Shown here piece by piece: positions 11,914 through 64,000 of a DNA stretch of 64,000 nucleotides. Position 1 is the first letter of the stretch, and every line of letters begins with the position of its first letter. The DNA lies in assembly GCA_052168235.1 (NCBI GenBank), contig JBQLZK010000009.1:1-64000 (forward strand), written 5' to 3'. The notes under the pieces were generated by a model. It was not told the DNA's origin. It saw nothing but the letters and a program-made list of their open reading frames with translations, and searched no databases. Both the position numbers and the translations under genes were made by a program. This DNA comes from Thainema sp. (GTDB lineage: Bacteria; Cyanobacteriota; Cyanobacteriia; Phormidesmidales; Phormidesmidaceae).

Positions 11914-11942
11914 GGTGGTTGATCAGGGTTAATCAGGGGCAA

Positions 11943-12635: not shown

Positions 12636-12684
12636 CCCACTTGCGCGATCAACCACGAGGTTGATTCTACCGAAGTCGCTGCCG

Positions 12685-16784: not shown

Positions 16785-17120
16785 ATGAAACTATCTCGCA
16801 ATGCAGTGATTACGGAAGCTAAGCTCACAAAGTATCTGCTGGTCTGGCGAGATGCAGATGATAAGTCTAAGTTTCTTGAGCAAGCAGGATACACTTTAGG
16901 AAACTGGCAGCAACTGGAAGCTGATTTGAGGAGTCAAATCTTACCGCTGGAAGCAGTGCCGTCTGATGAGCCAAATCGATTCGGAGATGTTTACGAGATT
17001 CGGGGCATATTGCATGGGGTAAATGGCCGTGACTTAGCCGTGATCACGATTTGGATGATTGAATACGAAACGAAGGTGACGAAGTTTGTCACCCTATATC
17101 CAGACAAGGAGGCCAGGTAG
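16785..17120 (+). CDS. DUF6883-like small protein (putative toxin domain)
   Basis: Pattern AVI.EAKLTKYLL.....DKSKFL..AGY...G.NG....V.TIW....FVTLYP recognised by eye. Confidence 0.65.
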   Translation: MKLSRNAVITEAKLTKYLLVWRDADDKSKFLEQAGYTLGNWQQLEADLRSQILPLEAVPSDEPNRFGDVYEIRGILHGVNGRDLAVITIWMIEYETKVTKFVTLYPDKEAR

Positions 17121-17365
17121 TGGTGTTTGAGCTGTTTACAAGGGTAGCCTTACGAGAAGATTTTCCGAAACATCAGTTACATCAAGGTGATGTGGCGACC
17201 ATTGTGGAGCATCATCCGGTAACTGAGGGCGAAGATGGATATAGTCTGGAAGTGTTTAACGCAATTGGGGAAACGATTGCAGTGTTGGTGGTTTCTGAAT
17301 CACAGATTGAACCACTTATGAGCAATGAAGTATTACACATCCGCGTGTTGGATCAGGCAGTTTAG
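17120..17365 (+). CDS. DUF4926 family protein
   Basis: V.L.ED.P...L..GDVATIVE....GYSLEVFNA.GETIAV; 1-nt overlap with the upstream stop. Confidence 0.75.
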   Translation: MVFELFTRVALREDFPKHQLHQGDVATIVEHHPVTEGEDGYSLEVFNAIGETIAVLVVSESQIEPLMSNEVLHIRVLDQAV

Positions 17366-17500
17366 AAAAGTTTGCCTGAAATATGGCTAAAGATGCGATC
17401 GCAGTTTCTTAAAGAAGTGCGATCGCTTTTTTATACAAAATTTTTGTGTGCTGACTTCACCCACTTAAACACTTCCTTTTAATTGAGTAGCAGGTGGAAA

Positions 17501-18457
17501 CTAGTTGTGTAGCAATTCCATACAGGGTTCTCCATGACAAGAATTGACCTCAACTAGTACGTGGGAAAGGGAAGGAATATGGCTGAGTAGATTCTTGTAA
17601 TACTCTGGTGCTTGTGGGTAGTGGGTCACCAGGGAAACGGTTGCAGACAAGTGGTTTTGGCTCACATGCCAGACATGCAAATCGACTACACGATTATCAG
17701 CATCGTTTTCAATCGCGTTCACAATATCCAGCTTGATGTGCTTACTAATGCCGCCATCGAGCAAGATTGAACTGGTGTCACTCACCAAGTCATAAGCCCA
17801 TTTAGTAATCACTCCGGCACCGACTAACCCCATCGCGGCATCCAGCCAGATCCAACCTAGAAACTTCCCAGCAAACAAGGCAATGATAGCCAAAACCGAG
17901 GTCAGCGCATCCGCTAAAACGTGAACATATGCAGCTCGAAGATTGTGATCTGAATGATGATGGTGACCATGTTCCCCATGATGATGATCATGGCCGTGGT
18001 TATGATCGTCTTGGAGTAGCCAAGCGCTCACTAAATTTATAGCTAATCCAAGAATCGCAACTCCAATCGCTTCATTAAACTGAATGGCTTGGGGTTGGAA
18101 AAACCGCTCTACCGATTCAAACGCCATCACAAATGCAATGACTGCTAGAGCAACGGCGCTGGCGAACCCGCCAAGCACACTCACTTTGCCAGTGCCAAAG
18201 GTATACCTTGGATCAGCCGCATGTCGGCGGGCATAGCGATAAGCAAACACTGTGATACCAAATGCCGCGACGTGAGTTGCCATGTGCCAACCGTCTGCCA
18301 ACAGCGCCATCGAACCAAAAATGGTGCCTGCGACAATTTCGGCAACCATTGTGACTGCGGTTATGAGCATCACGACCTTGGTATTTCGCTCTGCTTGATT
18401 CTGATGAACTGAGAAGTCATGAGAATGGTGCCACTGATCAATCGTGTGAATATGCAT
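17501..18457 (-). CDS. dmeF: CDF-family Co(II)/Ni(II) efflux transporter DmeF
   Basis: Motifs SMALLADGWHMATH, FGTGK, a His-rich loop and HNLRAAYVHVLADALTS. Confidence 0.9.
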   Translation of the reverse strand: MHIHTIDQWHHSHDFSVHQNQAERNTKVVMLITAVTMVAEIVAGTIFGSMALLADGWHMATHVAAFGITVFAYRYARRHAADPRYTFGTGKVSVLGGFASAVALAVIAFVMAFESVERFFQPQAIQFNEAIGVAILGLAINLVSAWLLQDDHNHGHDHHHGEHGHHHHSDHNLRAAYVHVLADALTSVLAIIALFAGKFLGWIWLDAAMGLVGAGVITKWAYDLVSDTSSILLDGGISKHIKLDIVNAIENDADNRVVDLHVWHVSQNHLSATVSLVTHYPQAPEYYKNLLSHIPSLSHVLVEVNSCHGEPCMELLHN

Positions 18458-39788: not shown

Positions 39789-42700
39789 CTATGTGCCCAC
39801 TTCAGTCCGGCTACAGGTTGCAAGAGGCAGCTCTCGCCGGAGTATCGGGCATGACTCAATTGGGTGCTTGTCATGCCGGAAGGCTTCGTCAACGCACTCT
39901 CTCCGAAATATCTGACCAAACTGCACCCGGTCACCTATCTGCCAGCTCCGAGAATCGGGTGTAAAACAAGAATATAGAGCCTCAGGACTCTCCGTGTCCA
40001 TGATCTCTTGATTAGAAATTGGATCTCTAATAGAAATTGTGGACACCGATGCGGATAGCTTTTTTCTAACGGCCTGCAACAGCTTGAGGCGAAGAGGATT
40101 CTCCAAATCAGGAAGAGCATAACGGCGAGCCCGTTTTTGATCGCGACGGCCAGGACGACTAATCGCAACCACCTTTAGTCCTAAGCGCTTCACCAGTTTG
40201 TTGGCAATTTGGCAGGGTGTCTGCTCGGGGTTGATCGTGAGATTTAACCAATAACGCACTTCATGGATGAATCGAAGGGCCACCTGCTTGATGGCAATTG
40301 CTCGTTTGTCGTGATTTGTCCACGGCTTACCATCGAGCAGGTTGAGTACGCCCAATTTGGCAATGATGGCAGCTTTGACATAGCGTCTGGGCAGCTGGTG
40401 TGGAGCCCGAATCGAGCTAGCGAGAATGGTCTCCATGATTCCGCGATCGCAGTTCTTGACCGCCTCTAGATTCTCAGCCTGAGCCTGGAGCAAAACACCC
40501 CGACGCAGTGCCCCATAGTCGTTACACAACACCTCGTAGCATTCATCTACATCATTGAAGTCGATACCCGGAAATTCCGAACGGCACAGCACTTTATACG
40601 CAATCAGGCGAATCTCCCGGCTACTCTCCATGCCGTTTAGAGTGCGGTGCGCCCAGTCTGGAGTATGCCCCGCTTGCGGCTCAGCCTCAGCAATCTCAAG
40701 CGCCTCCTCGAACCAAATTTGCTTCTGTGTAGCATGCCACAGTTGGGCAGTCGCCTTGTGAGCCGAGACGGTCGCGGTCGTTACGCCATGGCCCGCACCG
40801 TCTAGACGATCGATTAAGGCAGCCTGAGCGATCGCTTTTTGGCTTCCACTCACGGTACGGGCCACCGTTAGATAATCAACGATAGCCGACTCCACTCCAG
40901 CGAGTGGATGATCGCGAGTTCCAATATCAAAGAGTCGCGCCAGCGTGATCAGGTTTTGGCTCAGGCGCTGTTTGATCGCGCGGGGACTGCCTAGTGCTTC
41001 CTCACCCGTGCCCGTGATGAAGGGCGGAATAAAAATCTGGCGCGGTACCGCCGGTCGATACCGACCCAGTAGTTGGAGATGGGTATCGGTGCTCAGGGCA
41101 GGGAAATAGGCCCACACTGCATCAAAATAAGCATCCTCAACCGCCACTTGCCCTTCAATGCTGACCCCTGATTTGGCACTCGGCGAGAGAATCAACACCT
41201 CCGGCTGATTGACCTGAAGCCACCGATCTGGGTCTTTGAAAAACAGATTGAAGGTCTCTCCTTCGTTCGTTTCTGAATCGATGCGAGTGGTACGGATGCC
41301 TTGACCCTGCAAAATGCGGTCGAGCCGCTTCGCTTCCCGTTGGGAGCTGGTCACCACCAACAAGCGACTTCCCTGCTCAATCCGATGGAGCAGACGCTGC
41401 CGAAAGCCAGAGGCTTGGCCAGAAAAGACGTGACAGTCCCATGAGATGCCGTGTTTACGGTGTTGGAAACAGCGCACAGCTAGGGATTCACTAATTGTCT
41501 GCCAGAACTGCACAGCCCGATTGGGGAGACCATCTTCGCTGAGAACAATCGCACCTCCCGAGGCGATCGCGTGCTTGGCAACACGGACAATCTGTTCCAG
41601 GATGGCTCCATAGCGGCTGTTGAAGGTATCTCCCTGGCAGATATGCTCGGTCACCTGGTTACCCTCATCGACGATCAAGACAACGGGCTTTGACCAGAAC
41701 CACTCTGGCAGCTTGCCAATGGAGTCAGGACACAACACGAGGCCAGGGCGCTGGCGGGCGGCGTTCCAAAAATCGCGCTGACGTTGACCAGTGGCTCCCT
41801 GATCATGGATATGGAGAATGCCCCAGTCTTGGGCGGTTTGCTGCCCCAGTGCATTCAGTGGTGAGAGCACTAGGACGTGTTTGTCTTCCGTCAGGGCAGT
41901 GTGTACCCAATCGCGCCCGATGCGGTAGGTTTTCCCAGTATTCATGGTGGCATCTACGACATGAATAACGCCTGGTGTCAGTTCGGGCAATGGTGGCAGA
42001 TAGGGGCCTTCAGTGCGTCGTTCAATTGGAAACGTGAGCGCATTGTGTCGGTGGATGGCATTGAGCGCAGCCGCGATCTGTCCGCTGCGTTTGTACTGTT
42101 TGAGCGTGGGAGCTGCGTTCAAAAGTTCATGGAGTCGCTCTGCCCCGGTCAACTGGCGGGCACGGTCTGGAATAGGATAGTCGCTCGGATCTTGATAGTG
42201 TTGATGCGATCGCACTAAGGGGCTAAATCCTTTGGTTACCTCAGAAGGCTGCTCTGACGTTTCAAGATTGAAGGTGTCCAAACTCCCTACGGCTTTCGCT
42301 GCGTTGGTATAGCGGTAGAGAACATCATCAATTCCTTTGCCCTCTTGCGGTTGCCAGATTGGACAGCGAACTTGGCAGCCGTGACGGTCTAGAACCTGAC
42401 CCAGTTGCTTGACCTGCCGGTGTACATTGGCAATCGTTCTGGGCTTGGTGTCTTGATCGAACAGAATGAACAGCCGTCTGCCCTTCGTCGCAAAGCGTTC
42501 AATGGCAGCGTGCAGTTGTAGGCTTCCTTTGACATGCCATTGAGTGATGCCGCGCACCGCGATCGCAGGAATGCCATGAGCAATTAGTGCAAGAGCTTTC
42601 TTGAGTCCTTCTGCGATCGCAACTGGCAGATTATTCTGTTCGACCACAGCCCAAAAATCCTGACCGGGTAAGGGAGTCACATCGTAGCGCTCGTAAATGG

Positions 42701-43118
42701 TGGCTGCCGTGATGTCATCAACACGAGGCACAATCGGCTCAGCTACAGCTCCCGGTGGCGTCTCATACTTGATGGTTTTACCGAGCTTGTGAGGATCGGA
42801 TCGCGGATGGAACGGTTTGGCATACGGGACGCCTTCGCGTGTACACCACATGCCATCCCGCAGTGGTTCATAAATCTTGAGCAGGCGCTGAACTCCGACC
42901 GTGATGTAGCTGGTGACCGTTTGGGACTGAGCGATTTTATCTTCTAGGATCGCTTGAATAGCATCGTCACCGGAGAGGATTTGGACATTAGCGGTTGTCA
43001 GTCGATCTGGAATAGCAGACTGTCGAAAATCTGCTAGCATCCAGTCCTCCAGTGACAGCAATGCTCGATCCGAGTTAGAGCAATAGCAGGCATTGCTCGG
43101 TGTCAATCTCTCGTTCAT
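39789..43118 (-). CDS. DUF3854/CyRepA1-type plasmid replication protein (TOPRIM-like primase plus helicase-like domain)
   Basis: N-terminal IKYETP, IAEGLKKA..L..G, LFDQD and KGIDD; Walker A-like TMNTGKT; VLIVDE. Confidence 0.85.
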   Translation of the reverse strand: MNERLTPSNACYCSNSDRALLSLEDWMLADFRQSAIPDRLTTANVQILSGDDAIQAILEDKIAQSQTVTSYITVGVQRLLKIYEPLRDGMWCTREGVPYAKPFHPRSDPHKLGKTIKYETPPGAVAEPIVPRVDDITAATIYERYDVTPLPGQDFWAVVEQNNLPVAIAEGLKKALALIAHGIPAIAVRGITQWHVKGSLQLHAAIERFATKGRRLFILFDQDTKPRTIANVHRQVKQLGQVLDRHGCQVRCPIWQPQEGKGIDDVLYRYTNAAKAVGSLDTFNLETSEQPSEVTKGFSPLVRSHQHYQDPSDYPIPDRARQLTGAERLHELLNAAPTLKQYKRSGQIAAALNAIHRHNALTFPIERRTEGPYLPPLPELTPGVIHVVDATMNTGKTYRIGRDWVHTALTEDKHVLVLSPLNALGQQTAQDWGILHIHDQGATGQRQRDFWNAARQRPGLVLCPDSIGKLPEWFWSKPVVLIVDEGNQVTEHICQGDTFNSRYGAILEQIVRVAKHAIASGGAIVLSEDGLPNRAVQFWQTISESLAVRCFQHRKHGISWDCHVFSGQASGFRQRLLHRIEQGSRLLVVTSSQREAKRLDRILQGQGIRTTRIDSETNEGETFNLFFKDPDRWLQVNQPEVLILSPSAKSGVSIEGQVAVEDAYFDAVWAYFPALSTDTHLQLLGRYRPAVPRQIFIPPFITGTGEEALGSPRAIKQRLSQNLITLARLFDIGTRDHPLAGVESAIVDYLTVARTVSGSQKAIAQAALIDRLDGAGHGVTTATVSAHKATAQLWHATQKQIWFEEALEIAEAEPQAGHTPDWAHRTLNGMESSREIRLIAYKVLCRSEFPGIDFNDVDECYEVLCNDYGALRRGVLLQAQAENLEAVKNCDRGIMETILASSIRAPHQLPRRYVKAAIIAKLGVLNLLDGKPWTNHDKRAIAIKQVALRFIHEVRYWLNLTINPEQTPCQIANKLVKRLGLKVVAISRPGRRDQKRARRYALPDLENPLRLKLLQAVRKKLSASVSTISIRDPISNQEIMDTESPEALYSCFTPDSRSWQIGDRVQFGQIFRRECVDEAFRHDKHPIESCPILRRELPLATCSRTEVGT

Positions 43119-43680
43119 GCTGTTCTATTCCTCTTATGGCACAGCAGGAATAGACCATTTCAGAGCACCATCAACGTTCACCTTTCGAGGCGGGTTGCCA
43201 TTTCTGAAAGGCGTGATAACATAGGCGCAATAGTTCTGTGAGCCATTCAAGATTCTGTTGATCCTGGCCTTGAATGTCCCTTACTGGTCTATTCCGAATA
43301 ATCTGATCCGCTCTAGCGGGCGTTTGGAACTCTGGTTGCTGGCCGCAATCAGAGTTTTTAGCGTTTAAATTGCGTCTCCACCTCTAAGTTGACAATGGCT
43401 CAGGTTTTCGCCCTGATCATACTTCACTTATCGATAAAGATAAAATTTATAGCGAGTATTAAGCTAATGACGATTTTTTATCGTTTATTTATTTAATCTC
43501 GTGTATTCGTTAAAGCTTTGCGCTGTGATCTCGATCAATTGGGACGAATAAGGGACTATAGAAAACACAGGGGTGCATGATGAGGCGTAAGGGCTCTTTG
43601 AGGGTTTGCTTGTGCATCAGCCTGCCATCTCGAATGACGTCGAGACCCCCTTTAGCCCAATGATTGTTAATCGTTTTGCC

Positions 43681-44271
43681 ATGACCAACCCGACTGAGTC
43701 GGATCCAATCCCAGACCCCACATCCGCAGAGGAAACCCGTGTCACCGAACGGCTTCGGATCAAAGATGCGTTTTTTGCCGCTATTGATGAGGCCGACGGC
43801 TATAAGGCCACTCAATTGGCAGAAGCCGCTGGTGTCACGGATGCGACCCTTTCTTTCATGAGGAATCAGGGACGAGATGTCCGGATATCGACCTTTCAAC
43901 GTCTCCTAGATGCCATGCCGACTGATGTCTACCTCCGGTTCTATCGAAATCTGGGGGCGGGTCTTGCTGATAATGCGTTGACAGACCCGGACACACCGCC
44001 CGACCGGATTATTTCAGCGCTCTTACATCTGTGCACGGATCAGCAGTTGATGGCTCTGGTTCAAGAATTAGGCGCACTGTCTAAAGAACGACAAAGCCAA
44101 GGCAGCAAAGTGATATCAATCCTGGTGTTGCTCATGGAACTGATGCAGTATTGCGAACTCGAAGACATCCCTGAACTGATTGGTAAAGTTGGAAAATACA
44201 CGTCCACTGCGATTCATCGCGCGTCGGACACTCGCTCTGAATCGGACACTCGCTCTGAAGCGCAGCCCTGA
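43681..44271 (+). CDS. XRE-type HTH protein divergent from rep
   Basis: YKATQLAEAAGVTDATLSFMRNQGRDVRISTFQRLLDAM. Confidence 0.65.
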   Translation: MTNPTESDPIPDPTSAEETRVTERLRIKDAFFAAIDEADGYKATQLAEAAGVTDATLSFMRNQGRDVRISTFQRLLDAMPTDVYLRFYRNLGAGLADNALTDPDTPPDRIISALLHLCTDQQLMALVQELGALSKERQSQGSKVISILVLLMELMQYCELEDIPELIGKVGKYTSTAIHRASDTRSESDTRSEAQP

Positions 44272-52449: not shown

Positions 52450-54369
52450 ATGGCTCAGATGATTCCTGACTCTATTCCCTCGAACGCGAGCCAGGGAGAG
52501 AAAACGCTGTATCACCTGCTGAGCGATCGTCTACCGGATGACTTCATTGTTTGGTATGAGCCACGGGTGAAGAACCTCTATCCAGATTTTGTGGTGCTGG
52601 GGCCAGGCTTCGGCCTGCTGATTCTAGAGGTGAAAGGCTGGTTTGCCCACCACATTGAACGCGCCAATCACAACTTCTTTGACGTTCGCTATCGGCGTGA
52701 CAATACCATCAAGGTTGAAACCTATTCATCACCGCTGAAGCAGGGCCACAACTACTTTGCGTCCGTTTCCGATAAGCTGCTGGGCTATCCGCTCCTGTGC
52801 CGTCCAGACGGCAACTATCAAGGTCGCCTTGCTTTCCCGGTCGGTGTTGGCGCGGTCATGTCGAACATAACCGAGGCTCAAGCACGGGATGAAAACCTGT
52901 ATGTGCTGCTGGAGAAACCCCAGGTTGCCTATCGGGATGAGCTGCTGGCCTGGGAGAACATTAGCTCTCTCAATTTGATTGCCCGACTGAAGGCCATGTT
53001 TACGGTGGATTTTCCATTTCCACCGCTAACCCCTGACCAGATCAGCACGATTAAAGGAGTGCTGCATCCTGAAACCGTAATTAAGCAGGTGCCAGCGAGC
53101 CAGATGAGTTTACCGCTGGAGATTGAACAGCCACTGCCATCGAACAGTATGAAGTTGGTCAGCCTTGCCATTGAGCAAGAACGGCTTGCTCGCAAGCTCA
53201 AAGGTGGTCATCGACTTTTCTCTGGCGTTGCGGGTTCCGGTAAGACGCTGATTCTGCTGGCTCGTGCTAAAGCGCTGGCCAATCGGCTCTCACGGCCACG
53301 GGTACTGATTCTCTGCTTTAACATTACGCTGGCTGCTCACCTGAGATCGCAGCTGCACTCAGATGCCCAAAATCCTCAGTATCGAGCACAAATACAGGCT
53401 CAGCATTTTCATGACTGGGCGCGATCACTGCTCGGACGGCTGCCCGTGCCTAGAGAATTCAATAGCAGTGAAGAATATGAGACGTTTCTTGGCCAGCAGG
53501 TCTTGCTGCGGTTGCAGCAGCGATCGTCGGATCAAAAGTGGGATGCAGTCTTGGTGGATGAAGCGCATACGTTCTCCCCTGACTGGTTCCTCTGCTGTGT
53601 TGCTGCTTTGAAAGATCCTCTAGAGGGCGATCTGATGATTGTTTCAGATGGTAGTCAGAGTCTCTATCAGCGGCGCAAGTTTACCTGGAAATCAGTTGGC
53701 ATACAGGCACAGGGCCGCAGTCAGCGACTGGCTCAGAACTACCGGAATACGCATGAAATTCTCTCAGCCGCGTGGCAGGTTGTACAGCCCGCTCCAGCCG
53801 TACCTGATGAAGATGCGACATTTCCCATTGTTGAACCGAGGGCAGCGCTCCGGCATGGGCCAAAGCCTGTTCTGCATCTGACTTCATCTAGAGCAGATGC
53901 AGTCGAAGCCGTTTTAGATGAGGTGCGATCGCAGTGTGAATCGGGCTATGCTCCGGCTGAGATTGCGATTCTCTACCGCTACAAGTCCAAAAAAGATGAG
54001 CCGCTGTTTCAGTCGATGCTGAAGCGGTTAGACGATATGGGTGTGCAGTCCTACTGGATAACTGAGAGTACGACAACCAAACTCAACTACAGCGTTCGCA
54101 AGCCAGGCGTGCGCGTCCTCACGACGCTGTCCTCACTGGGCTTGGAATTCAAGGTTGTTCTGCTGATCTGGGTGGAGCAATTCAACGACTGCTGCGATCG
54201 CAACTCTGATGCAGTAGCCTTAGCGCGGCGGCAGCTCTATGTGGCGATGACTCGTGCTCAGGATGAACTACATCTGTTTGGCCATGTGCGATCGCCCGTT
54301 ATTCGAGAACTGAGAGAAAGCAATGCATTTAGCGCGATCACTGTTCGAACCAGCCAGGTGATGACATAG
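52450..54369 (+). CDS. NERD nuclease-domain / UvrD-like SF1 helicase fusion
   Basis: Motifs PDFVVL....GLLILEVKGW, GVAGSGKT, VDEAH, L.QNYRN, SLGLEF and LYVAMTRA. Confidence 0.88.
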   Translation: MAQMIPDSIPSNASQGEKTLYHLLSDRLPDDFIVWYEPRVKNLYPDFVVLGPGFGLLILEVKGWFAHHIERANHNFFDVRYRRDNTIKVETYSSPLKQGHNYFASVSDKLLGYPLLCRPDGNYQGRLAFPVGVGAVMSNITEAQARDENLYVLLEKPQVAYRDELLAWENISSLNLIARLKAMFTVDFPFPPLTPDQISTIKGVLHPETVIKQVPASQMSLPLEIEQPLPSNSMKLVSLAIEQERLARKLKGGHRLFSGVAGSGKTLILLARAKALANRLSRPRVLILCFNITLAAHLRSQLHSDAQNPQYRAQIQAQHFHDWARSLLGRLPVPREFNSSEEYETFLGQQVLLRLQQRSSDQKWDAVLVDEAHTFSPDWFLCCVAALKDPLEGDLMIVSDGSQSLYQRRKFTWKSVGIQAQGRSQRLAQNYRNTHEILSAAWQVVQPAPAVPDEDATFPIVEPRAALRHGPKPVLHLTSSRADAVEAVLDEVRSQCESGYAPAEIAILYRYKSKKDEPLFQSMLKRLDDMGVQSYWITESTTTKLNYSVRKPGVRVLTTLSSLGLEFKVVLLIWVEQFNDCCDRNSDAVALARRQLYVAMTRAQDELHLFGHVRSPVIRELRESNAFSAITVRTSQVMT

Positions 54370-54495: not shown

Positions 54496-55071
54496 TCAGT
54501 GGGAGATCTGCGATCGCAAAAAGTCTTGGATGGCAATCTCACACTCCGGAAACGCTAGCGGTGTAACAGTATCCTGTTCCGATAGCGTTCGCTGTACCCT
54601 ATAGCCTGTTTGCTCTGGCTCTTGAAAGACATACAAACACCGTTCTTGCACATCCAAGATCCAGTACTCCTGAATGCCAGAGTGTCCGTATATGGGAACT
54701 TTTAGATCGCGATCGCGCCGTAGTGTACTGTCCGCTACCTCAATGAGTAAAAATATTTCTGTTGGTATTGGGTGGTGATCTTCATAATCAAGCGGATCAA
54801 TTTGCACCACTGCTACATCAGGTTCGGGTTCTGAGAAGCCGCTCAACTGTACTGGGTCTTGAAACCGCAGCAATGCCTTTCCTGCCAACAGACGAGACAA
54901 TATTCGACCGATGCGCGTTACTGCTGCGCTATGCGCTGTCCCTTTTGCGGGCATCCTGTAGAGCTGTCCTTCAATCAATTCCACTCGTTCATCAGCTGCC
55001 AAAATTCCCGCTTCTACCATGCGGTGATAGTCCTGCACACTGAGTGCTCTGAGTTCTGCGGCAATACTCAT
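54496..55071 (-). CDS. Uma2 (DUF820) family endonuclease
   Basis: Motifs VELIEG, SEPEPD, LLIEVADS, DRDLK..Y and IQEYWILD. Confidence 0.9.
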   Translation of the reverse strand: MSIAAELRALSVQDYHRMVEAGILAADERVELIEGQLYRMPAKGTAHSAAVTRIGRILSRLLAGKALLRFQDPVQLSGFSEPEPDVAVVQIDPLDYEDHHPIPTEIFLLIEVADSTLRRDRDLKVPIYGHSGIQEYWILDVQERCLYVFQEPEQTGYRVQRTLSEQDTVTPLAFPECEIAIQDFLRSQISH

Positions 55072-55236: not shown

Positions 55237-55479
55237 AGTAACCCACTAAATCAAATCCAATTGATGGCTTATGTTGCTGAGCAGATAAGCAAAAACTCCT
55301 CACATTCTTTTTGCCAAAGTCCAATGTGAGGAGCTGAATCGATTTCTGATTTTTTCAAGTGAAGGACAGTAAACGCGGAGTGGGTAAGTTTGATTGTGGA
55401 ATTGGAGGATGGGCAAAAGACAGAAGACGCACAATTTCATTCATTAATTATCAATCGATATTTAATGGCTAGTACTGAA

Positions 55480-55628
55480 AGGCAGAAGTAAGAAGGCAGA
55501 AGGCAGAACGGAGATTCCCTATCTTGAAAGAGTTTCAGCTTTAGCAAAAGGGTGAGTTATTTCTGCCGTCGATTACTAGTTAGGTAACCTTTTCATCCTT
55601 CTGCCTTCTGCCTTCTGCCTTCTGCCTT
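55480..55628. repeat. Element bounded by inverted heptamer arrays (GGCAGAA)n ... (TTCTGCC)n
   Basis: Directly visible; abuts the trailer end of the CRISPR array. Confidence 0.75.
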
Positions 55629-55635
55629 GGTAGAC

Positions 55636-58552
55636 GTTTCCATTAATTCAACTTCCGAAGAAGTTTAGAGTGGCGAGCTTCGTTACGGTACTGGGTTAGA
55701 TTCTGAGGGTTTCCATTAATTCAACTTCCGAAGAAGTTTAGAGCTCCAATCAGGTCAAGGTGGCCCCGCATCCTATACCCAGAAGTTTCCATTAATTCAA
55801 CTTCCGAAGAAGTTTAGAGAATGCAACGTACAGGCAGTTGGAGGTTTCGTTCACGGTTTCCACTAATTCAACTTCCGAAGAAGTTTAGAGCAATCCTAGC
55901 GGATTGTCTCAAACCGACGTGCAATCGGTTTCCATTAATTCAACTTCCGAAGAAGTTTAGAGTAGGATCTGCTGACGGACGGACTGAAGTAAAAAGTTTC
56001 CATTAATTCAACTTCCGAAGAAGTTTAGAGCCCATGTTGTCAAAGTCACAAAAGGCAATAATTAGTTTCCATTAATTCAACTTCCGAAGAAGTTTAGAGC
56101 ATGGGCTACACAGCTCGTCGCTAGGTTCCAGCTTGCTGTTTCCATTAATTCAACTTCCGAAGAAGTTTAGAGCACAGCAAACGTGCCCCGATGGCACCGT
56201 CGTCAACAATGGTTTCCATTAATTCAACTTTCGAAGAAGTTTAGAGATGAGTCTGATGGGATGATTAACTCCCAACAGATCGCAACGTTTCCATTAATTC
56301 AACTTCCGAAGAAGTTTAGAGGGGTTGGACTCCTGAAATCTGAACTCCAGCAGTTCTTAGGTTTCCATTAATTCAACTTCCGAAGAAGTTTAGAGATGAA
56401 AACCTGCTAGTGATTGATTGCTTCCTTGAAGGTTTCCATTAATTCAACTTCCGAAGAAGTTTAGAGTTGGATTTGTAATCCAAACTCAATATCTAACCTT
56501 ATGTTTCCATTAATTCAACTTCCGAAGAAGTTTAGAGCATACTGAAGAAAAATATATAGTAATCGCTTCATCAAGTGTTTCCATTAATTCAACTTCCGAA
56601 GAAGTTTAGAGTTGAAGGGGTACTTCATGTCCCCGAAACCAATCACGTTTCCATTAATTCAACTTCCGAAGAAGTTTAGAGTATCATTTGGCACTGTAGT
56701 GGGCGGTCAGAGTCAGGTTTCCATTAATTCAACTTCCGAAGAAGTTTAGAGAGGCTCATACTTAAGCCACTACGGGCTCGAGTATGGACTGTTTCCATTA
56801 ATTCAACTTCCGAAGAAGTTTAGAGATCTAAAGCGACTACTACAACTGTTTTAATTCGCTAAAGTTTCCATTAATTCAACTTCCGAAGAAGTTTAGAGAA
56901 TTTTTTTCTGGACGCGGCAGCAATGCCACAGGTGGTTTCCATTAATTCAACTTCCGAAGAAGTTTAGAGTTAAGGCGGCTGTCGAGGCGACAGGTGGCCA
57001 CTCGTTTCCATTAATTCAACTTCCGAAGAAGTTTAGAGAAGCCTTCCGCAAGAGCAACGAAAGCTCTTTCGTCGTTTCCATTAATTCAACTTCCGAAGAA
57101 GTTTAGAGACTCAACTAGTTGAATTAGACATTAAGCTCGCTGTAGCTCAGGCTGTTTCCATTAATTCAACTTCCGAAGAAGTTTAGAGTTTTGGGTTCAA
57201 TCGTTACCAAAACAGTTCCAGCGTTTCCATTAATTCAACTTCCGAAGAAGTTTAGAGGTTCCCTATTGGCAAGCGCCCTACCAGCTTTTGCGGGAGTTTC
57301 CATTAATTCAACTTCCGAAGAAGTTTAGAGCCTATGAGCCAAATGCAGGCTTCATCTCATGCGAAGATTGTTTCCATTAATTCAACTTCCGAAGAAGTTT
57401 AGAGTTGCCTCATCAGTAGGGGCGCAGGAGGCGTCTGCGTTTCCATTAATTCAACTTCCGAAGAAGTTTAGAGCAGCCACCGCCCAAGTCATGGGTGGCG
57501 ACCAGGGAACGTTTCCATTAATTCAACTTCCGAAGAAGTTTAGAGAAGGGACCACACTCACCCCACCCTCATCTATAACGGTTTCCATTAATTCAACTTC
57601 CGAAGAAGTTTAGAGCAGCCTGAGCCTCAGCCCGATGTCACCAATAATTATGGTGGGTTTCCATTAATTCAACTTCCGAAGAAGTTTAGAGCGGATGTGG
57701 ATGAAACGGAAGGCGGGGCAGCCATCGTTTCCATTAATTCAACTTCCGAAGAAGTTTAGAGGATCGTCGATAACGGTGTGAAGCTTGCTCCGCAAGCTGC
57801 GTTTCCATTAATTCAACTTCCGAAGAAGTTTAGAGTAGAGATCCAGATCACCCAAGCTAACAAGCTGGCTGGGTTTCCATTAATTCAACTTCCGAAGAAG
57901 TTTAGAGTCTGGGAAATCCCAAGTTTGGGGAAGTGAACGAAAGTTTCCATTAATTCAACTTCCGAAGAAGTTTAGAGGTGCACTTCTCGTTGGAGGAGCA
58001 GTCATGACTCCCGTTTCCATTAATTCAACTTCCGAAGAAGTTTAGAGAGCAAAGTGAAGGGTCTGGGGGATTCGAAGGAAACGTTTCCATTAATTCAACT
58101 TCCGAAGAAGTTTAGAGAATCTACCCAACCACCTGCTGCTCAGCAACTTCCAGGTTTCCATTAATTCAACTTCCGAAGAAGTTTAGAGCTCCCTATAAAG
58201 ACCACATCCCTCCCAGGTATATGGATGTGGTTTCCATTAATTCAACTTCCGAAGAAGTTTAGAGGCGGTCGTGGCAGGTGGAGCAGCAATCACTGCTCTC
58301 ACGTTTCCATTAATTCAACTTCCGAAGAAGTTTAGAGAGATTGCGAGTACCTTTTTGCCACAGGTACTCAAAAACTGTTTCCATTAATTCAACTTCCGAA
58401 GAAGTTTAGAGTTCCTTGTCAGTCGTGCCAGATTCAACGAGGGGATGTTTCCATTAATTCAACTTCCGAAGAAGTTTAGAGGTGTTGATGCTCAAGAATA
58501 TGGAACAATCGTTGGAAGTTTCCATTAATTCAACTTCCGAAGAAGTTTAGAG
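55636..58552 (-). CRISPR. CRISPR array, 41 repeats / 40 spacers, type III-like
   Basis: 35-bp repeat GTTTCCATTAATTCAACTTCCGAAGAAGTTTAGAG on +. On the minus strand it ends ATGGAAAC (8-nt handle). Spacers are 33-45 bp. Single-base repeat variants at 55856 and 56212 lie toward the left (trailer) side. Confidence 0.98.
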
Positions 58553-58842
58553 GGTCGGGTTCTAGAACCCTTGCCTCGTCTACATTCTACACCCCCATTT
58601 TTCTCGGGGTCGCCCCAAACCCAAAATAAATGCAAAGATCTCTCAACAATGCCCTGTGGAAAACCTCTGAAACCCTTATCCCATAAGCCTCGCGCTGGGT
58701 TCGACGAAAGAATGCGGGTTTCAGCGATCCGTAGACCCCGAGAAGAAATCAAGCATAGAAGCGTAAACAAGAGCAAATCGCAAACCATAGACCATGAATC
58801 ACTCTGACGACCAAAAACAAGCAAAAATCAGAATTGGGATTC
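58553..58842 (-). promoter_or_regulatory. CRISPR leader
   Basis: Region between the cas operon and the first repeat with no credible gene; same strand as the cas genes. Confidence 0.7.
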
Positions 58843-59283
58843 TCATCTCTTTCGCGAAAACAACCGCTGTATCAGGCGTTTGGGGCTTTTCGTTAGGGGA
58901 TTGTACTCCTCATGGGAAATCACCTTCATTGGCGTTACCTGATCGCCGTCATCATGACACAGCAACCGATAGCGATCCGTTACCGGAATTCTAATCACAT
59001 CATGCGACATTTTCAGTCGTTTTCCTGAGAGTTGCCAATAGCTTGTTCCCTGGTTCAATGCTGATAAAACCTGCCGCGCTTTTTTGACAATTGCCTTTGG
59101 CAATTCACTCAAATCAATCACATCCGCACTGAACGTCGCCGCCCAATTCTGCCGTTTCGCCTGCCGTTTTTGCAAGGCTTGTTGCTTGTGCCTAGCCCGA
59201 TCTGCACAGCAGTGACAATAGCGACCAAATCCCCGATGCCCGCAGCGGAACCGTTTTTTATGTTTTCGACTGCGGCGGCTCAT
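58843..59283 (-). CDS. Zn-finger plus RelE/ParE-like small basic protein
   Basis: CGH.G.G.YCHCC N-terminus; C-terminal L.GKRL.....IRIPV..RYRLL.......ISHEEYN resembles RelE/ParE-fold toxins. Confidence 0.6.
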   Translation of the reverse strand: MSRRSRKHKKRFRCGHRGFGRYCHCCADRARHKQQALQKRQAKRQNWAATFSADVIDLSELPKAIVKKARQVLSALNQGTSYWQLSGKRLKMSHDVIRIPVTDRYRLLCHDDGDQVTPMKVISHEEYNPLTKSPKRLIQRLFSRKR

Positions 59284-59666
59284 GATGACACCACCCAAGC
59301 ATCCGCGTTCTCAATGAAGCGAGCTGCCGTTTTCAGCACAATCTCGTATTGATGAAACATTTCCTGACCCACTTCTGCATCCAGGTAGTTACACAAAATT
59401 GCAAACTCCAGCCAGGTTTGAGTCTCTGCTGCTTCGGCCTCCACTTCATTCAGCTTGGCCACAAACGCCTTGTGATAGCGTCGCTTTTGCCACGCCTCAG
59501 CTAAATTGGCACAGACCGATCGCGACGAACGAATCAACTGCTCCGTCAGCAAATAGCGCTCATTCTCTGGAAACGCCTGCGTCAGCTCAAAGATCCGCAT
59601 GGCCGCTTCAAAAGCAACCTGGTACATCAACAACTCTCGATGATCCGTAACAAAATCAGCAGACAT
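59280..59666 (-). CDS. Four-helix-bundle protein (23S rRNA IVP / Avd-like family)
   Basis: Motifs L..YQ.A, FP..ERY.L..QLIRSSRSVCANLAEA and E.AETQTWLEFA; ATGA overlap with the next gene. Confidence 0.88.
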   Translation of the reverse strand: MSADFVTDHRELLMYQVAFEAAMRIFELTQAFPENERYLLTEQLIRSSRSVCANLAEAWQKRRYHKAFVAKLNEVEAEAAETQTWLEFAILCNYLDAEVGQEMFHQYEIVLKTAARFIENADAWVVSS

Positions 59667-59710
59667 AATTTTTCTCCAAATCATTCAAATCTTGAATAAA
59701 CCTGTTCTTT

Positions 59711-59751: not shown

Positions 59752-60030
59752 TCACACGATAAACGCCGGATCATCAACCTGGCGCTCCGGCTGCATCCCC
59801 AGAATCAGCACCTTGCGGCGGGTATGCGCCGTCATTGGGTAAAAGCGCACCTGGTCTTCTTCTGCTTTGATATAGCGAGTCAGCTTGCGTTGCAGTAGGC
59901 CAAGCTGATTGTCTTCTAGAACGCATTCAAACACCGACTTTTGAACCCGCAGACCATAGCCTTCCAGCAGATGAGCCACCTTGTTGCGCCGACTGGTTTT
60001 CACGATGTCGTAGCAAATCAGATAAAACAT
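59752..60030 (-). CDS. cas2: CRISPR-associated endonuclease Cas2
   Basis: Motifs YLICYDI, RR.KV...LEGYG.RVQKSVFEC and DQVRFY. Confidence 0.96.
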   Translation of the reverse strand: MFYLICYDIVKTSRRNKVAHLLEGYGLRVQKSVFECVLEDNQLGLLQRKLTRYIKAEEDQVRFYPMTAHTRRKVLILGMQPERQVDDPAFIV

Positions 60031-60036
60031 TGGTAA

Positions 60037-62013
60037 CTACTTACTCCATCGCATCGGGCGATAGACCTCGCGCTCTCCCATCAGGCAGGCCACGTACTCC
60101 CAAACCTGGAGTTCAAAACAGCGACGATAGTTGACCTTATGCCCCGTACTGGGATGAGTCACCTTCTTGTTGAGAAACTCTTCCCACTTCTGAAGAAACT
60201 TCTTCAGCGCATCCGGCTGGAGATACACCCCGCCACGGGCATCCGGAGGTGTAAAGTCTTCTTCGGTGAAAATATTGCTGTTAATCAAATAGGCGACACA
60301 GGCATCGACCACTGGAGCGCGGAATTCTTCAATCAGGTCGCAAACCAACGAGGGTCGATTTTTCTGGGGCTTATGCAAATTGCCAAAATGGGTGTGCAAC
60401 CCCACCGTTTCCACCATCGAGTGCAGATTCTGTGACAGCAGCGTATAGCCCAAACTGAGCAAGCTGTTCACCGGGTCAGTCGGTGGCCGACGCGTCCGCT
60501 TTTCAAACTCAAATCCACCTTTCAGCAGCGACGCATAGGCGCGAAAATAGAGGTTAGCTGCCTGCCCTTCAAAACCCAGCATGGTTTCAATCGACTCCGC
60601 CTGCTCAATCTGCTGCATCAGGTCGGGAATAGCTGCGATCGCATCTTCAGCCAATTCCGTTGGCCGCTTGCGCTGCATCCGCTTCAAGACCACTCGGCTG
60701 TTGTGTAGCTTCGCCAGAATAATGCTCTGAGCCTGTCGTTGGGTAAACTCCGGCTTTTGGGCCTGTTCCACCTGCTTGGTTAGATAGTCAATTTGAGCAT
60801 GACCTTCCGTATCCAATCTGCCAAAATAGCGACCGTTACTGGCCAAATACAGCACCGGAATCTTGCGCTGCAACGCTAAACTCACGGCTCCGTGCGATAA
60901 GTTGCAGCAACCAAACAGCACCACATGGCTAACCTGGTTGACGGGGACGCTAATTTTTAATTCCTGCTCATGAAACACCTGAAATTGCTTATGGCGAGCG
61001 CGCAGATATGCGCCTTGATCGGTTACATAGAGAGTTGTCATCGGTTCACTCCAATAGGTATCGGCATCGGCAGAACGCCGCCGCCGTTTGGTTTTGACAA
61101 TGCTGCACGCCTTAGGAGGGCCATAAGATTGGGGAGCCTTCGCCGCTTTGGGTTGAGCTGCCCGGATCGGATACTTGCGCTCAGGAGCAATTACCTGCCC
61201 ATTGCTAAACTGGTGGCCCAGAAATGTGAACGGCTCGTGGGGAGCCAAAATCTGCGTTTTCTCAGGATGCAGCGATAAATAGAGGTCATCCAGCAAATCG
61301 GTGATCAAATCCAGCGCTCGGTGGGCCTGCATCCAGCTGGGGCTGACGACGATACAGTCATCGCCATAGCGCACCAGCGGAATCCCATATTCCAAACAGG
61401 TATGGTCAAACTGGCTGAGATAGAGATTGGCCAGTGCGCCAGACAGGCTGCTGCCTTGAAGCACGCCTTTATTGAGAAACTGCCGCCGCCCGTTGACCGA
61501 AATACCTGCTTTGAGCTGCTGCTCCAGCAGTTGCACAGTCTCTGACCTCAAACCCAGTGCTTCTAGCTGTTCCAGCAAAATTGGCCAGGAAAGATTGTCA
61601 AAAAACTGCTGAATATCGGCTTTGACCACCCAGGCGGGCTGATGCTGGTAAAACTCCATCACCTTGGCCACAGCCTGATAGATCGATAGCCCCGGACGAT
61701 AGGCAAAACAGCTATCGGAAAAGGTTTCCTCCAGATAGGGATAGATGGTCTGGAGCAGAAACCGCTGCACAATCCGGTCTTCCACGGTGGGAATGCCAAT
61801 TAAGCGCCGCCCACCATTTTTCTTGGGCAGCCAAATGCCCCTGGCTGGACTGGCCGCATAGGACTGTCGCCGCAGTTGAGTCTGCATCTGGCGGATTTGG
61901 GCCTGGGCAATTCCGGCAAACAAGTCAACGGAGATGCCGTCGATACCTGCGGCTTGGCTGCCTCGCTGGACGAGATGCCAAGCGGCCACTAACTGTTCGG
62001 TCTGCACATTCAT
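60037..62013 (-). CDS. cas1: Reverse transcriptase-Cas1 fusion
   Basis: RT motifs AAGIDG, RLIGIPTVEDRIVQ, ADIQQFFD, GVLQGS.LS..LANLYL, RYGDD and FLG. Cas1 motifs TLYVTDQGA, GFEGQAA..YF, RRPPTDPVNSLLS.GY and DLIEEFR. Confidence 0.95.
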   Translation of the reverse strand: MNVQTEQLVAAWHLVQRGSQAAGIDGISVDLFAGIAQAQIRQMQTQLRRQSYAASPARGIWLPKKNGGRRLIGIPTVEDRIVQRFLLQTIYPYLEETFSDSCFAYRPGLSIYQAVAKVMEFYQHQPAWVVKADIQQFFDNLSWPILLEQLEALGLRSETVQLLEQQLKAGISVNGRRQFLNKGVLQGSSLSGALANLYLSQFDHTCLEYGIPLVRYGDDCIVVSPSWMQAHRALDLITDLLDDLYLSLHPEKTQILAPHEPFTFLGHQFSNGQVIAPERKYPIRAAQPKAAKAPQSYGPPKACSIVKTKRRRRSADADTYWSEPMTTLYVTDQGAYLRARHKQFQVFHEQELKISVPVNQVSHVVLFGCCNLSHGAVSLALQRKIPVLYLASNGRYFGRLDTEGHAQIDYLTKQVEQAQKPEFTQRQAQSIILAKLHNSRVVLKRMQRKRPTELAEDAIAAIPDLMQQIEQAESIETMLGFEGQAANLYFRAYASLLKGGFEFEKRTRRPPTDPVNSLLSLGYTLLSQNLHSMVETVGLHTHFGNLHKPQKNRPSLVCDLIEEFRAPVVDACVAYLINSNIFTEEDFTPPDARGGVYLQPDALKKFLQKWEEFLNKKVTHPSTGHKVNYRRCFELQVWEYVACLMGEREVYRPMRWSK

Positions 62014-62242: not shown

Positions 62243-64000
62243 ATGGTGGGGCGATCGCTAAAGCTATCGGAACAGGGAGAACAACAGGCTCGCCAAGCCC
62301 TTGTTTATAAAAGCCTGACTCAAAAAGCGATCGCAGTTGAAGAAGGCATTGCCTCTTGGGCAACCGTCAACCGATTTTTTAACCGCAAACCTGTAGACCG
62401 CTTCATTTTTCAGGAGATCTGTCAGGTGCTGGATCTGGATTGGACAGACGTGGTAGAGCGGGAAGATACTCTGACTGATGAGTCAATTAGTGAACCTGAA
62501 ATTCAGGCAATCAGCACTCAAGATCAGCAGCTATCAGAAACAACTTTCGTTCCTGTTATGCAGAGCGATTTGCTGGAACAAGTGCGATCGCAATCGGCGG
62601 CGGCACGGGAAGCGCTGACCCCCCGGATTTTAGAGCGGATTTCGCGTCAGGTGGTGCGGGAGAAGTATTTGAGTGCGATTGATCGAGGGGTGACGCTGGA
62701 ACGTGAGCGGCTGATTCCGATTATTGGCCCGGCTGGTTATGGCAAAAGCACGATTCTGGGCGACATCTACGATCAGCTACTGGCAAAGGGGACAGTGTGG
62801 GTTGGTCTGGTGCTGTGCAGCAACCTTTCACTGTCAACCAGCTATTTGGGCGGTGTGTCGTATGGTCTAGTCTCTTCCACATTTGCGCCGAATGCGGGTC
62901 AAGCAACTGATCCGTTGAGTAACCAGCAGACGATGTTAGATCAAGCAATGGGACAAAGTCTCTGTGGTGATCTGCGATCGCTAATTGATGTGGCTCAGGA
63001 GTTGAATCAAACACTGGGGCGGGGTGTGCTGCTGATCGATACGCTCGATCTGGTGATCAACCGAGACTTTGTGCGGATCTTTGGCGCGTTAATGCGTCAG
63101 CTTTTAGCCCAGGGAACAACGGTGGTGTTTACCTGCCGCCACCATGAATATAACGACTATCTGGAACCCGTCCATCAGCGACTGCCGGGACTGGGCCAGT
63201 CAATCGATCGCTATGCAGTGCCCAACTTTTCGACGGAGGAGATCCAGGCGGCAGCGACGGCATTTTTTCGCCGCTTGGCACCAGACGATCCCGAACGGGG
63301 ACAGGCGTTTGCCGATAAGGTGCTGGCCCTCTCGGCGGATAATCGATCGCTGCGGGAGATTTTAGAAAATCCCCTGCTGCTAGCGTTGCTGTGCGATCTA
63401 TTCGGTGCAGAAGGGAATGTGCCGCCGGATTTGACCGTCAGCAAGCTGTATCAGCGCTACTGGCAAGAGAAAGTGACCTACAGCCGCATTGATCAAAGCC
63501 ACTATGCACCGCTTGCGATCGCAAAAGAGGATCTCTGTTTACGCACGGCAGAGCGGCTGTTTGACCTGTCAAAAACGCGGCTGTATGAGTCGTTTTATCG
63601 CGATGAGATGGGGCTGGAGTTTACGCCGGACGTGACGGCGGCCTACAGCGATTTGCTGAGCGAAGGGGTATTGACCCAGTTACCGTCTGGCAAGCTGCAT
63701 TTCTTTCACCAAACCCTGCTGGAATATGCGATCGCATATTGGCTGACGCGCCAGTCGGCTCAGGCACAGCGAGCGGAATTTTTTCGGCAATTGTCTGAAC
63801 CGGATACGGTTAGAGATTCTAGTTACTGGCTGCCTGTGCTGCGGCAGTTTTTGGCGATTGTGGATGAGGCGGAATTTGAGCTGTGGACAGGACGCTTGGA
63901 TTTGGAGCACATGGGCATTTTCGGGGCAGTGGCCTATGCGGCGGTTTCGCGAGATCGACCGGATGCGCTGCGGCAGTTGTTACCCGTGGCGCTGAAGCTG
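62243..64000 (+). CDS. HTH-NACHT (STAND NTPase) protein, 3' end beyond the window
   Basis: Absent from the ORF track because it has no stop in the window. MVGRSLKLS...LTQKAIA......SWATVNRFF.RKPVDR..F.EIC..L.LDW (XRE HTH), Walker A GPAGYGKST, Walker B LLIDTLD, FTCR, NPLLL and FFHQTLLEY. Confidence 0.88.
   Translation, partial: MVGRSLKLSEQGEQQARQALVYKSLTQKAIAVEEGIASWATVNRFFNRKPVDRFIFQEICQVLDLDWTDVVEREDTLTDESISEPEIQAISTQDQQLSETTFVPVMQSDLLEQVRSQSAAAREALTPRILERISRQVVREKYLSAIDRGVTLERERLIPIIGPAGYGKSTILGDIYDQLLAKGTVWVGLVLCSNLSLSTSYLGGVSYGLVSSTFAPNAGQATDPLSNQQTMLDQAMGQSLCGDLRSLIDVAQELNQTLGRGVLLIDTLDLVINRDFVRIFGALMRQLLAQGTTVVFTCRHHEYNDYLEPVHQRLPGLGQSIDRYAVPNFSTEEIQAAATAFFRRLAPDDPERGQAFADKVLALSADNRSLREILENPLLLALLCDLFGAEGNVPPDLTVSKLYQRYWQEKVTYSRIDQSHYAPLAIAKEDLCLRTAERLFDLSKTRLYESFYRDEMGLEFTPDVTAAYSDLLSEGVLTQLPSGKLHFFHQTLLEYAIAYWLTRQSAQAQRAEFFRQLSEPDTVRDSSYWLPVLRQFLAIVDEAEFELWTGRLDLEHMGIFGAVAYAAVSRDRPDALRQLLPVALKL

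Follow-up and report, generated by a model that had tools for sequence, protein, structure and literature searches.

The spacers of a CRISPR array in the cyanobacterium Thainema sp. contain about four times as many clear hairpins as expected, and a hairpin excess is also present in cyanobacterial arrays without a reverse transcriptase (RT). The array is located at 55636–58552 of a 64,000-nt stretch of contig JBQLZK010000009.1 (assembly GCA_052168235.1, positions 1–64,000), referred to below as the window. It is an ordinary CRISPR array served by an acquisition module that consists of Cas2 and a Cas1 protein fused to an RT (RT-Cas1). The excess, its strand symmetry, and its presence in non-RT arrays were observed directly, as was the fact that plasmid and phage DNA in bulk shows almost none of it. 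The hairpin bias is present regardless of the RT, and therefore the hairpin content says little about whether the spacers came from RNA or DNA. We infer that the enrichment arises at capture, through an RT-independent bias for hairpin-forming nucleic acid, an explanation to which we give about an even chance.

Hairpin excess in the spacers

The array was parsed as follows:

55636..58552, minus strand: CRISPR array, 41 repeats of 35 nt and 40 unique spacers (repeat and spacer parsing)

The 40 spacers are 33–45 nt long, are all unique, and span 55671–58517, so the array coordinates and spacer number given in the initial annotation of this DNA were correct. The repeat boundaries are exact. Thirty-nine of the 41 repeats are identical, and the copies at 55856 and 56212 carry one substitution each. 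No second array was found elsewhere in the window.

The longest perfect Watson–Crick stem with a loop of 3–15 nt was determined for each spacer and compared with 400 dinucleotide shuffles. Because the loops were limited to at most 15 nt, the two ends of a spacer cannot pair with each other. Stems of at least 6 bp were present in 10 of the 40 spacers against 2.1–2.3 expected (P(shuffle ≥ observed) = 0.0025, the lowest value possible with 400 shuffles). Stems of at least 5 bp were present in 15 spacers (8.6 in the shuffles), and stems of at least 7 bp in 4 (0.5 in the shuffles). Random fragments of the window gave 2.1 stems of at least 6 bp per 40. The approximately four-fold excess of clear hairpins in the array is solid.

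Folding energies gave the same picture. The energy of each spacer was calculated on both strands and expressed as a z score against 300 dinucleotide shuffles, a check that the initial annotation had itself proposed. The spacers exceeded the controls, with a mean z of about −0.67 on the plus strand and −0.68 on the minus strand (t-test p ~0.002). Individually, 5/40 spacers on the plus strand and 8/40 on the minus strand reached p < 0.05. The mean z of 700 length-matched random window fragments was −0.09, and bootstrap samples of 40 reached the spacer mean with P = 2e-4. Four of the strongest spacer hairpins were reproduced by a second folding run. The individual hairpin spacers are listed below:

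55891..55927, plus strand: 6-bp perfect stem, 4-nt loop, flush with one spacer end (stem scan)
56247..56286, plus strand: stem of 4 + 5 bp with one A-A mismatch (−12.9 kcal/mol, z −3.14 to −3.35)
56467..56502, plus strand: 7-bp stem, 3-nt loop, flush with one end (stem scan)
56752..56790, plus strand: the most structured spacer, two stems CATACT/AGTATG and AGCC/GGCT (−15.2 kcal/mol, z −3.67 to −4.28)
56970..57003, plus strand: 6-bp stem, 3-nt loop (z −2.4 to −2.5)
57039..57073, plus strand: 6-bp stem (stem scan)
57189..57222, plus strand: 6-bp stem, 12-nt loop, flush with one end (stem scan)
57474..57510, plus strand: 6-bp stem; the minus strand folds better, −18.2 vs −12.4 kcal/mol (folding)
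57762..57800, plus strand: 7-bp stem, 3-nt loop (stem scan)
58189..58229, plus strand: 7-bp stem, 13-nt loop, flush with one end (stem scan)
58265..58302, plus strand: 6-bp stem, 6-nt loop (stem scan)
58338..58376, plus strand: 8-bp stem, 9-nt loop (z −2.8 to −3.6)

All 11 stem-loops named in the initial annotation are present in the sequence; the loop at 58189 has 13 nt, not 14. The estimate that roughly half of the spacers contain a stem-loop reflects a real excess but is generous, because there are about 10–15 clear stems and 8–9 stems of 5 bp are expected anyway.

The hairpin spacers begin with the 4th and extend to the 38th, and the old as well as the new stretches of the array contain them. 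This spread fits a standing property of acquisition better than a single infection. Hairpins flush with a spacer end were found in 27 of the 111 hairpin spacers of all parsed arrays and in 4 of the 10 in the window, compared with 17–19% in the controls; the difference is not significant. The hairpin offsets across the 111 spacers showed no departure from a uniform distribution (Kolmogorov–Smirnov p = 0.085). The flush-end trend could hint that stems help to set the prespacer ends.

Two other origins of the hairpins were considered and rejected. Intrinsic terminators do not account for them: the region contains 2 terminator-like sites, compared with 4.6 in shuffles. Snap-back synthesis by the RT was rejected by inspection, as the stems are short (6–8 bp) and some are imperfect, with loops of 3–13 nt and unpaired flanks. 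No Rfam family was detected in the window at gathering thresholds; two matches in the array (E = 0.86 and 1.8) lie far under these thresholds and are not credible.

Orientation of the array and strand symmetry

The reverse complement of the repeat ends with ...ATTAATGGAAAC, which resembles the oriented repeats of related cyanobacterial arrays. Both mutated repeats are found toward low coordinates, where the old end would be. The repeat 3′-end and the position of the mutated repeats suggest minus-strand transcription of the array and a leader beside the high-coordinate end. The cas genes share this strand. The plus strand of each spacer is thus probably the target RNA sequence, as the initial annotation assumed.

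58553..58842, minus strand: probable leader, between the last repeat and an open reading frame (ORF) for a ParE-like protein (from position and array polarity)

A simple promoter scan found no sigma-70-like site within 58553–58842; the nearest minus-strand matches are at 59038–59009 and 59016–58988. At the old (trailer) end of the array, 55479–55628 contains two blocks of tandem heptamers (AAGGCAG and its complement) that face each other. These blocks form a 30-nt inverted repeat, 93% complementary, that encloses about 90 nt and ends 7 nt before the first CRISPR repeat.

The paired strand difference over the 40 spacers was 0.03 z units (p = 0.875). The signal is a DNA-level palindrome, equal on both strands. 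The initial annotation had stated that the stems of several spacers (57405, 57474, 57978, 58412) rely on G-U pairs that favour the plus strand, which the paired difference does not bear out. The spacer at 57474 folds better on the minus strand by the energies listed above, and that at 57978 is no better than shuffles (z +0.37). Among the four, 58412 alone showed structure specific to the plus strand, and this was weak (p = 0.09).

The coding sense of the spacers was predicted with a classifier that was 80.6% correct on host gene fragments. The plus strand scored as coding sense in 25 of the 40 spacers, a weak signal (binomial p = 0.15, Wilcoxon p = 0.028).

Comparison arrays with and without reverse transcriptase

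Comparison arrays were taken from cyanobacterial plasmid loci (numbered with the prefix L) that were found by searching with the array and with RT-Cas1, and were parsed with a custom script. Locus L005, a genome contig with 2 spacers, was left out of the group counts, as was the first parse of L025 (22-nt repeat), which was replaced by a re-parse with the 37-nt repeat. Array a of L002 has 24 spacers and the same repeat and lies beside an unannotated Cas1 fragment and an insertion sequence (IS) element. It was counted in neither group (4 stems of at least 6 bp vs 2.1 expected). The counts of stems of at least 6 bp by group were:

This window: 40 spacers, 10 observed, 2.3 expected, ratio 4.4
Other fused RT-Cas1 loci: 219 spacers, 35 observed, 12.5 expected, ratio 2.8
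Loci with separate RT and Cas1: 89 spacers, 11 observed, 5.7 expected, ratio 1.9
Type III arrays without RT: 225 spacers, 36 observed, 14.4 expected, ratio 2.5
Type I-D arrays (DNA-targeting): 241 spacers, 19 observed, 11.0 expected, ratio 1.7 (1.73; P = 0.018)

The other RT-linked arrays pooled gave 46 stems vs 18.2 expected (n = 308, ratio 2.53) and the non-RT arrays 55 vs 25.4 (n = 466, ratio 2.16), and these ratios did not differ (binomial p = 0.48). A pool of 725 non-window spacers contained 101 stems vs 42.4 expected (ratio 2.4). The ratio of the type I-D arrays is below that of the type III arrays; with the earlier parse of L025, the comparison of the two gave p = 0.38.

The clearest sign that the hairpin bias needs no RT is the array of Picosynechococcus PCC 7002 plasmid pAQ6 (L020, 13447–20218). 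This type III-B array without an RT has stems of at least 6 bp in 19 of its 86 spacers vs 5.8 expected, and its mean z is −0.45.

Two small RT-linked arrays, L001 3217–4265 (z −1.30, n = 14) and L010 6736–7673 (z −1.15, n = 13), are the most structured of all. Their sister arrays at the same loci, with an identical repeat in L001 and a near-identical one in L010, have mean z values near zero (−0.15 and −0.10). Outside the cyanobacteria, the RT-Cas1 arrays of Azospirillum, Tistrella, and Rhodococcus together provided 25 spacers with 1 stem vs 1.2 expected (z −0.17), an uninformative sample in which two of the repeats were probably cut short in parsing. No array was found in the Vibrio RT-Cas1 locus.

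Source DNA and RNA phage calibration

The hairpin content of bulk source DNA does not explain the excess. The real-to-shuffled stem ratio was 1.14 for 5230 non-array fragments of the same plasmid loci, and 1.25 (n = 5000), with mean z values of −0.08 and −0.28 (n = 250), for the double-stranded DNA cyanophages Pf-WMP4 and PaV-LD.

Random 34–40 nt fragments of the single-stranded RNA (ssRNA) phages MS2, AP205, and phiCb5 gave a stem ratio of 2.55, with mean z values of −0.80 for one strand and −0.68 for the other. The window spacers are as structured as these fragments, and so are the spacers of arrays that are unable to copy RNA. Since such arrays have hairpins too, the hairpin clue does not discriminate an RNA origin. 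The ssRNA phage fragments differed only weakly between strands (p = 0.105, n = 250), which shows that the strand test has low power. Strand asymmetry therefore cannot decide the matter with 40 spacers.

Spacer overlaps and protospacer searches

None of the 780 spacer pairs shared a sequence of more than 10 nt, and the chance level in 30 shuffled sets was 8–11 nt. For 40 spacers, about 10 pairs that overlap by at least 12 nt would be expected from a 4-kb source and about 40 from a 1-kb source. The probability of zero overlaps was 0.013 for a 10-kb source and 0 for a source of 4 kb or 1 kb. The lack of overlaps excludes a single levivirus- or viroid-sized replicon as the source, and an RNA-replicon origin therefore needs many distinct replicons.

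The whole array was aligned with 50,697 phage records, including Leviviricetes, by blastn (11-nt words, E ≤ 1), and no match was found. The search against 72,556 plasmid records gave 6 matches, none of which is a spacer source. Four of them are arrays with a related repeat. The other two, in Lacticaseibacillus (36 nt, 88.9%, E = 0.8), lie mostly over the repeat and were taken as chance. When the 40 spacers were compared by blastn-short with the array-masked window and with loci L001–L032, chance matches of 12–17 nt alone were obtained. A match to a DNA phage, a plasmid, or a host gene had been proposed as the finding that would speak against an RNA source; the phage, plasmid, and window searches gave no such match.

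Comparison with published systems

The closest precedent is the type III-A system of Streptococcus thermophilus. The text of PMC8860593 reports that its Cas1-Cas2, which has no RT, prefers hairpin-forming DNA. The protospacers described there lie at single-strand origins, a transfer origin, attenuators, and rRNA and tRNA genes. The preference was seen in an interference-null strain, hence before selection. The hairpin preference of type III Cas1-Cas2 is restated in PMC9048733 and PMC13575424. The S. thermophilus system as described in PMC8860593 resembles the present case in that the spacers are enriched in partial palindromes, the bias is independent of an RT, and there is no protospacer adjacent motif. 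It differs in that fresh acquisition was measured and protospacers were mapped, whereas here the natural array alone is read. Set against source DNA as in PMC8860593, palindromes are enriched 4.4-fold in the window and 2.4-fold in the other arrays (n = 725), compared with 1.14 for plasmid and 1.25 for cyanophage DNA. The RT-independence of the bias is seen in the comparison arrays (36 vs 14.4 in type III arrays without RT), not at the window locus. The type II-A system of the same S. thermophilus host is described in PMC8860593 as showing no such bias, whereas the cyanobacterial type I-D arrays studied here show a weaker excess.

Among RT-linked systems, the type III-B system of Arthrospira platensis in Silas et al. 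2017 (PMC5513706) is similar to the present one. According to the text of that paper, an RT is fused to Cas1 beside Cas2 and an array, and the spacer source could not be identified there, as here. The hyperdiverse Arthrospira RT-linked spacers are reported without a source, RNA viromes included, and the few matches among 2,054 RT-linked spacers were mostly to DNA phages or prophages. Unlike the Arthrospira system, the present one has no type III effector genes inside the 64-kb window. The text of PMC5513706 contains "hairpin" 0 times and "secondary structure" once.

Roseiflexus sp. RS-1's type III-B array, also linked to RT-Cas1, is described in the text of two preprints as carrying spacers directed at partiti-like RNA phages and at viroid-like circular RNAs (bioRxiv 10.1101/2022.02.15.480533; 10.1101/2022.07.19.500677). 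It has the same kind of adaptation module and is a documented case of what the initial annotation proposed. The Roseiflexus claim, as presented there, rests on spacer matches to RNA-only contigs, whereas the present array had no source match in the searches made. The string "cyanobacteri" is absent from the text of both preprints. A literature search on the hairpin or self-complementary content of natural spacers, made in a limited collection of papers and with supplements outside its scope, returned nothing beyond the papers cited here.

Origin of the hairpin bias

We propose that the adaptation machinery, possibly together with host factors, would preferentially capture fragments that fold back into a hairpin, and that this bias would operate with or without an RT. 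Fragments of this kind may come from the origins of plasmids or phages, from transfer origins, from attenuators, or from the strand displaced during transcription of DNA. A preference of RT-Cas1 for hairpin substrates, offered as an alternative in the initial annotation, comes close to this explanation, except that the preference is apparently not specific to RT-Cas1, in line with the text of PMC8860593. Chance or an array-parsing artefact was rejected and is extremely improbable: the array has only 40 spacers, and 5-bp stems are common in random sequence (8.6/40 in shuffles), but the shuffle and bootstrap tests, the same excess in 725 independent spacers, and the exact repeat boundaries all speak against it. 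Capture might also be unbiased. Spacers that target conserved, structured parts of mobile DNA (origins or regulatory hairpins, for example) would then stay useful for longer and build up. The excess in all system types examined, I-D included, and the hairpin spacers in both old and new array parts would fit such retention. We nevertheless consider it very unlikely, given that the S. thermophilus preference described in PMC8860593 arose before any selection.

Several observations weigh against a purely RT-independent capture bias. The mean z follows a gradient from the window (about −0.66) through fused RT (−0.48, n = 219), unfused RT (−0.38, n = 89), and non-RT type III (−0.28, n = 225) to type I-D arrays (−0.21, n = 241). 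The folding z of the other RT-linked arrays differed from that of the non-RT arrays by Welch test (p = 0.015), with a Mann–Whitney p of 0.054, and, of the arrays with 10 or more spacers, the seven that fold best are without exception RT-linked. For locus means, 10 RT-linked loci (window included) vs 9 non-RT loci gave p = 0.11. The window ratio of 4.4 is at the upper edge (P(≥10 at the general rate) = 0.05; window vs non-RT arrays p = 0.065). The smaller excess in type I-D arrays was not predicted by the published type III-specific preference. Arrays also vary greatly: no excess is seen in the non-RT array of L021 (3 vs 2.3, z 0.01), nor in certain RT-linked ones (L015; L010 at 23353). Four RT-linked comparison loci also encode a separate Cas1, so the RT-linked assignment is by locus only. 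Finally, no protospacers were found in the phage, plasmid, window, or locus searches, and the proposed source sites (origins, attenuators) remain conjectural. The folding-energy gradient, with RT-linked arrays on top, means that the RT may add something, but the evidence for an extra RT contribution to hairpin richness is suggestive at best.

Such a contribution could take the form of RT-specific capture of structured RNA from any transcript (host, DNA phage, or plasmid) on top of the general bias, if stable stem-loops were enriched in RNA fragments that withstand RNases or lend themselves to ligation or reverse transcription. The gradient, the intact YGDD motif of the RT, and the Wilcoxon result for coding sense on the target strand point this way. 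We regard it as unlikely, since the stem ratios of RT-linked and non-RT arrays are alike, the locus-level, Mann–Whitney, and binomial tests are not significant, and no spacer matches the host window. The spacers also show no strand asymmetry, though by the ssRNA phage calibration this test has low power. A stronger proposal is that many spacers came from RNA phages or viroid-like RNA replicons of this cyanobacterium, whose dense structure would be seen as hairpins. Fragments of MS2, AP205, and phiCb5 fall in the same range as the window spacers, no spacer matched the DNA phage or plasmid records searched, and RT-Cas1 is intact. Against this, non-RT arrays share the hairpin excess, the signal is strand-symmetric, the lack of spacer overlaps excludes a single source of up to 10 kb, the phage collection with its Leviviricetes records gave nothing at E ≤ 1, and the matches reported for Arthrospira in the text of PMC5513706 point mostly to DNA phages and prophages, with none from an RNA virome. 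This origin is quite unlikely in our view. The memory of RNA viruses or viroid-like replicons read from this array in the initial annotation thus gains no specific support here. It is not refuted either, considering the absence of DNA matches, the ssRNA-phage-like level of structure, and the somewhat better folding of RT-linked arrays.

RT-Cas1 module and neighbouring genes

The genes between the array and the end of the window include the adaptation module, and on the minus strand they run toward the array in the order RT-Cas1, Cas2, four-helix-bundle protein, and ParE-like ORF:

60037..62013, minus strand: RT-Cas1 fusion of 658 amino acids, RT domain at residues 63–269 and Cas1 domain at 328–612 (Pfam RVT_1 4.8e-35, Cas_Cas1 5.4e-92)
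59752..60030, minus strand: Cas2 (Pfam CRISPR_Cas2 1.3e-24; NCBIfam cas2 3.9e-19)
59280..59684, minus strand: four-helix-bundle protein of the 23S rRNA intervening-sequence protein family, between cas2 and the array (Pfam 2.8e-25; NCBIfam TIGR02436 1.4e-23)
58843..59298, minus strand: ORF with a ParE-like toxin domain and a zinc-binding DUF7682 domain (Pfam 1.2e-25 and 8.7e-9)

RT-Cas1 also matched the NCBIfam cas1 model above its cutoff (3.4e-95). Its match to the NCBIfam model of group II intron RT/maturase (3.7e-71, 240.1 bits) is under the 300-bit cutoff of that model. The translation contains the intact YGDD catalytic motif of the RT, and the domain search found no Cas6 domain in the protein. 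The distance from the end of cas2 to the array is 1.2 kb. The locus features of an array served by RT-Cas1 are present: regular repeats with unique spacers, adjacent cas1 and cas2, and an RT with a YxDD motif fused to Cas1.

A scan of 38 ORFs over the 64 kb of the window found no gene for a type III effector (Cas10, Csm/Cmr). A repeat that differs by 1 nt adjoins type III-B Cmr genes on two Nostoc plasmids. The repeat is a member of the family that accompanies type III-B effector genes in other cyanobacteria, and on this basis the array is presumably of type III.

RT-Cas1 relatives with 54–60% identity are encoded on plasmids of Pseudanabaena, Allocoleopsis, Anabaena, Nostoc, and Gloeothece, and relatives with 58–82% identity were found in seven genome contigs (2.0–4.8 kb). 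All seven come from other genomes, and L005 is the only one with an array fragment (2 spacers). The closest relatives among representative genomes are from Nodosilinea sp. LEGE 07088 (82% identity) and an uncultured assembly (80%), both on short contigs. In L002, an unannotated stretch at 17007–18077 (NZ_CP040299.1 33135–34205) is 60% identical to residues 299–656, the Cas1 half, of the window RT-Cas1. It lies between the array of the same repeat family and an IS4 transposase, and it looks like a decayed RT-Cas1.

The four-helix-bundle protein at 59280–59684 has a weak match to Avd, the accessory protein of diversity-generating retroelements (E = 2.8e-4). Genes annotated as "four helix bundle protein" adjoin cas1, cas2, or cas4 in 4 comparison loci, with and without an RT:

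L010 22400–22789: four-helix-bundle gene (annotation)
L012 25970–26317: four-helix-bundle gene (annotation)
L002 11155–11511: four-helix-bundle gene (annotation)
L016 10865–11233: four-helix-bundle gene (annotation)

The ParE-like ORF, directly upstream of the probable leader, shares 19 nt with the end of the four-helix-bundle gene. A gene for a STAND/NACHT-like NTPase (62243–64000), with all Pfam matches under the curated cut-offs, is divergent from RT-Cas1 and runs off the window end. On the other side of the array are a Uma2 endonuclease (54496–55071), a NERD-UvrD helicase (52450–54369), and a 1109-amino-acid DUF3854-domain protein that adjoins a helix-turn-helix protein (39789–44271). The CRISPR module, the DUF3854 protein, the helicase, and the Uma2 endonuclease may together make up a defence island or a mobile one. 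A metal-resistance cluster at 13507–39400 encodes two RND pumps, a CusB/HlyD-like adaptor, a cation-efflux protein, a P-type ATPase, a multicopper oxidase, and three DUF305 proteins. Three two-component pairs accompany it, two inside 13507–39400 and one at 10489–12656.

Implications for spacer acquisition in cyanobacteria

The spacer source of RT-Cas1 systems in cyanobacteria has been an open question since 2017, as the text of PMC5513706 describes. The spacers of RT-Cas1-linked cyanobacterial arrays, the present one among them, might be more strongly folded than those of non-RT arrays because they were partly copied from the structured RNA of diverse, unsampled RNA phages or viroid-like replicons of cyanobacteria, which we find quite unlikely. 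If it were true, the array would offer first access to RNA parasites in a phylum from which the literature searched documents none. Showing that the hairpin clue does not discriminate saves a false lead. In about 800 natural cyanobacterial spacers, short hairpins are 2.2–2.7 times commoner than in shuffles, an enrichment not shared by plasmid or phage DNA in bulk. The preference observed in experiments on one Streptococcus type III-A system thus seems to hold also for natural arrays in another phylum, and perhaps for type I-D arrays.

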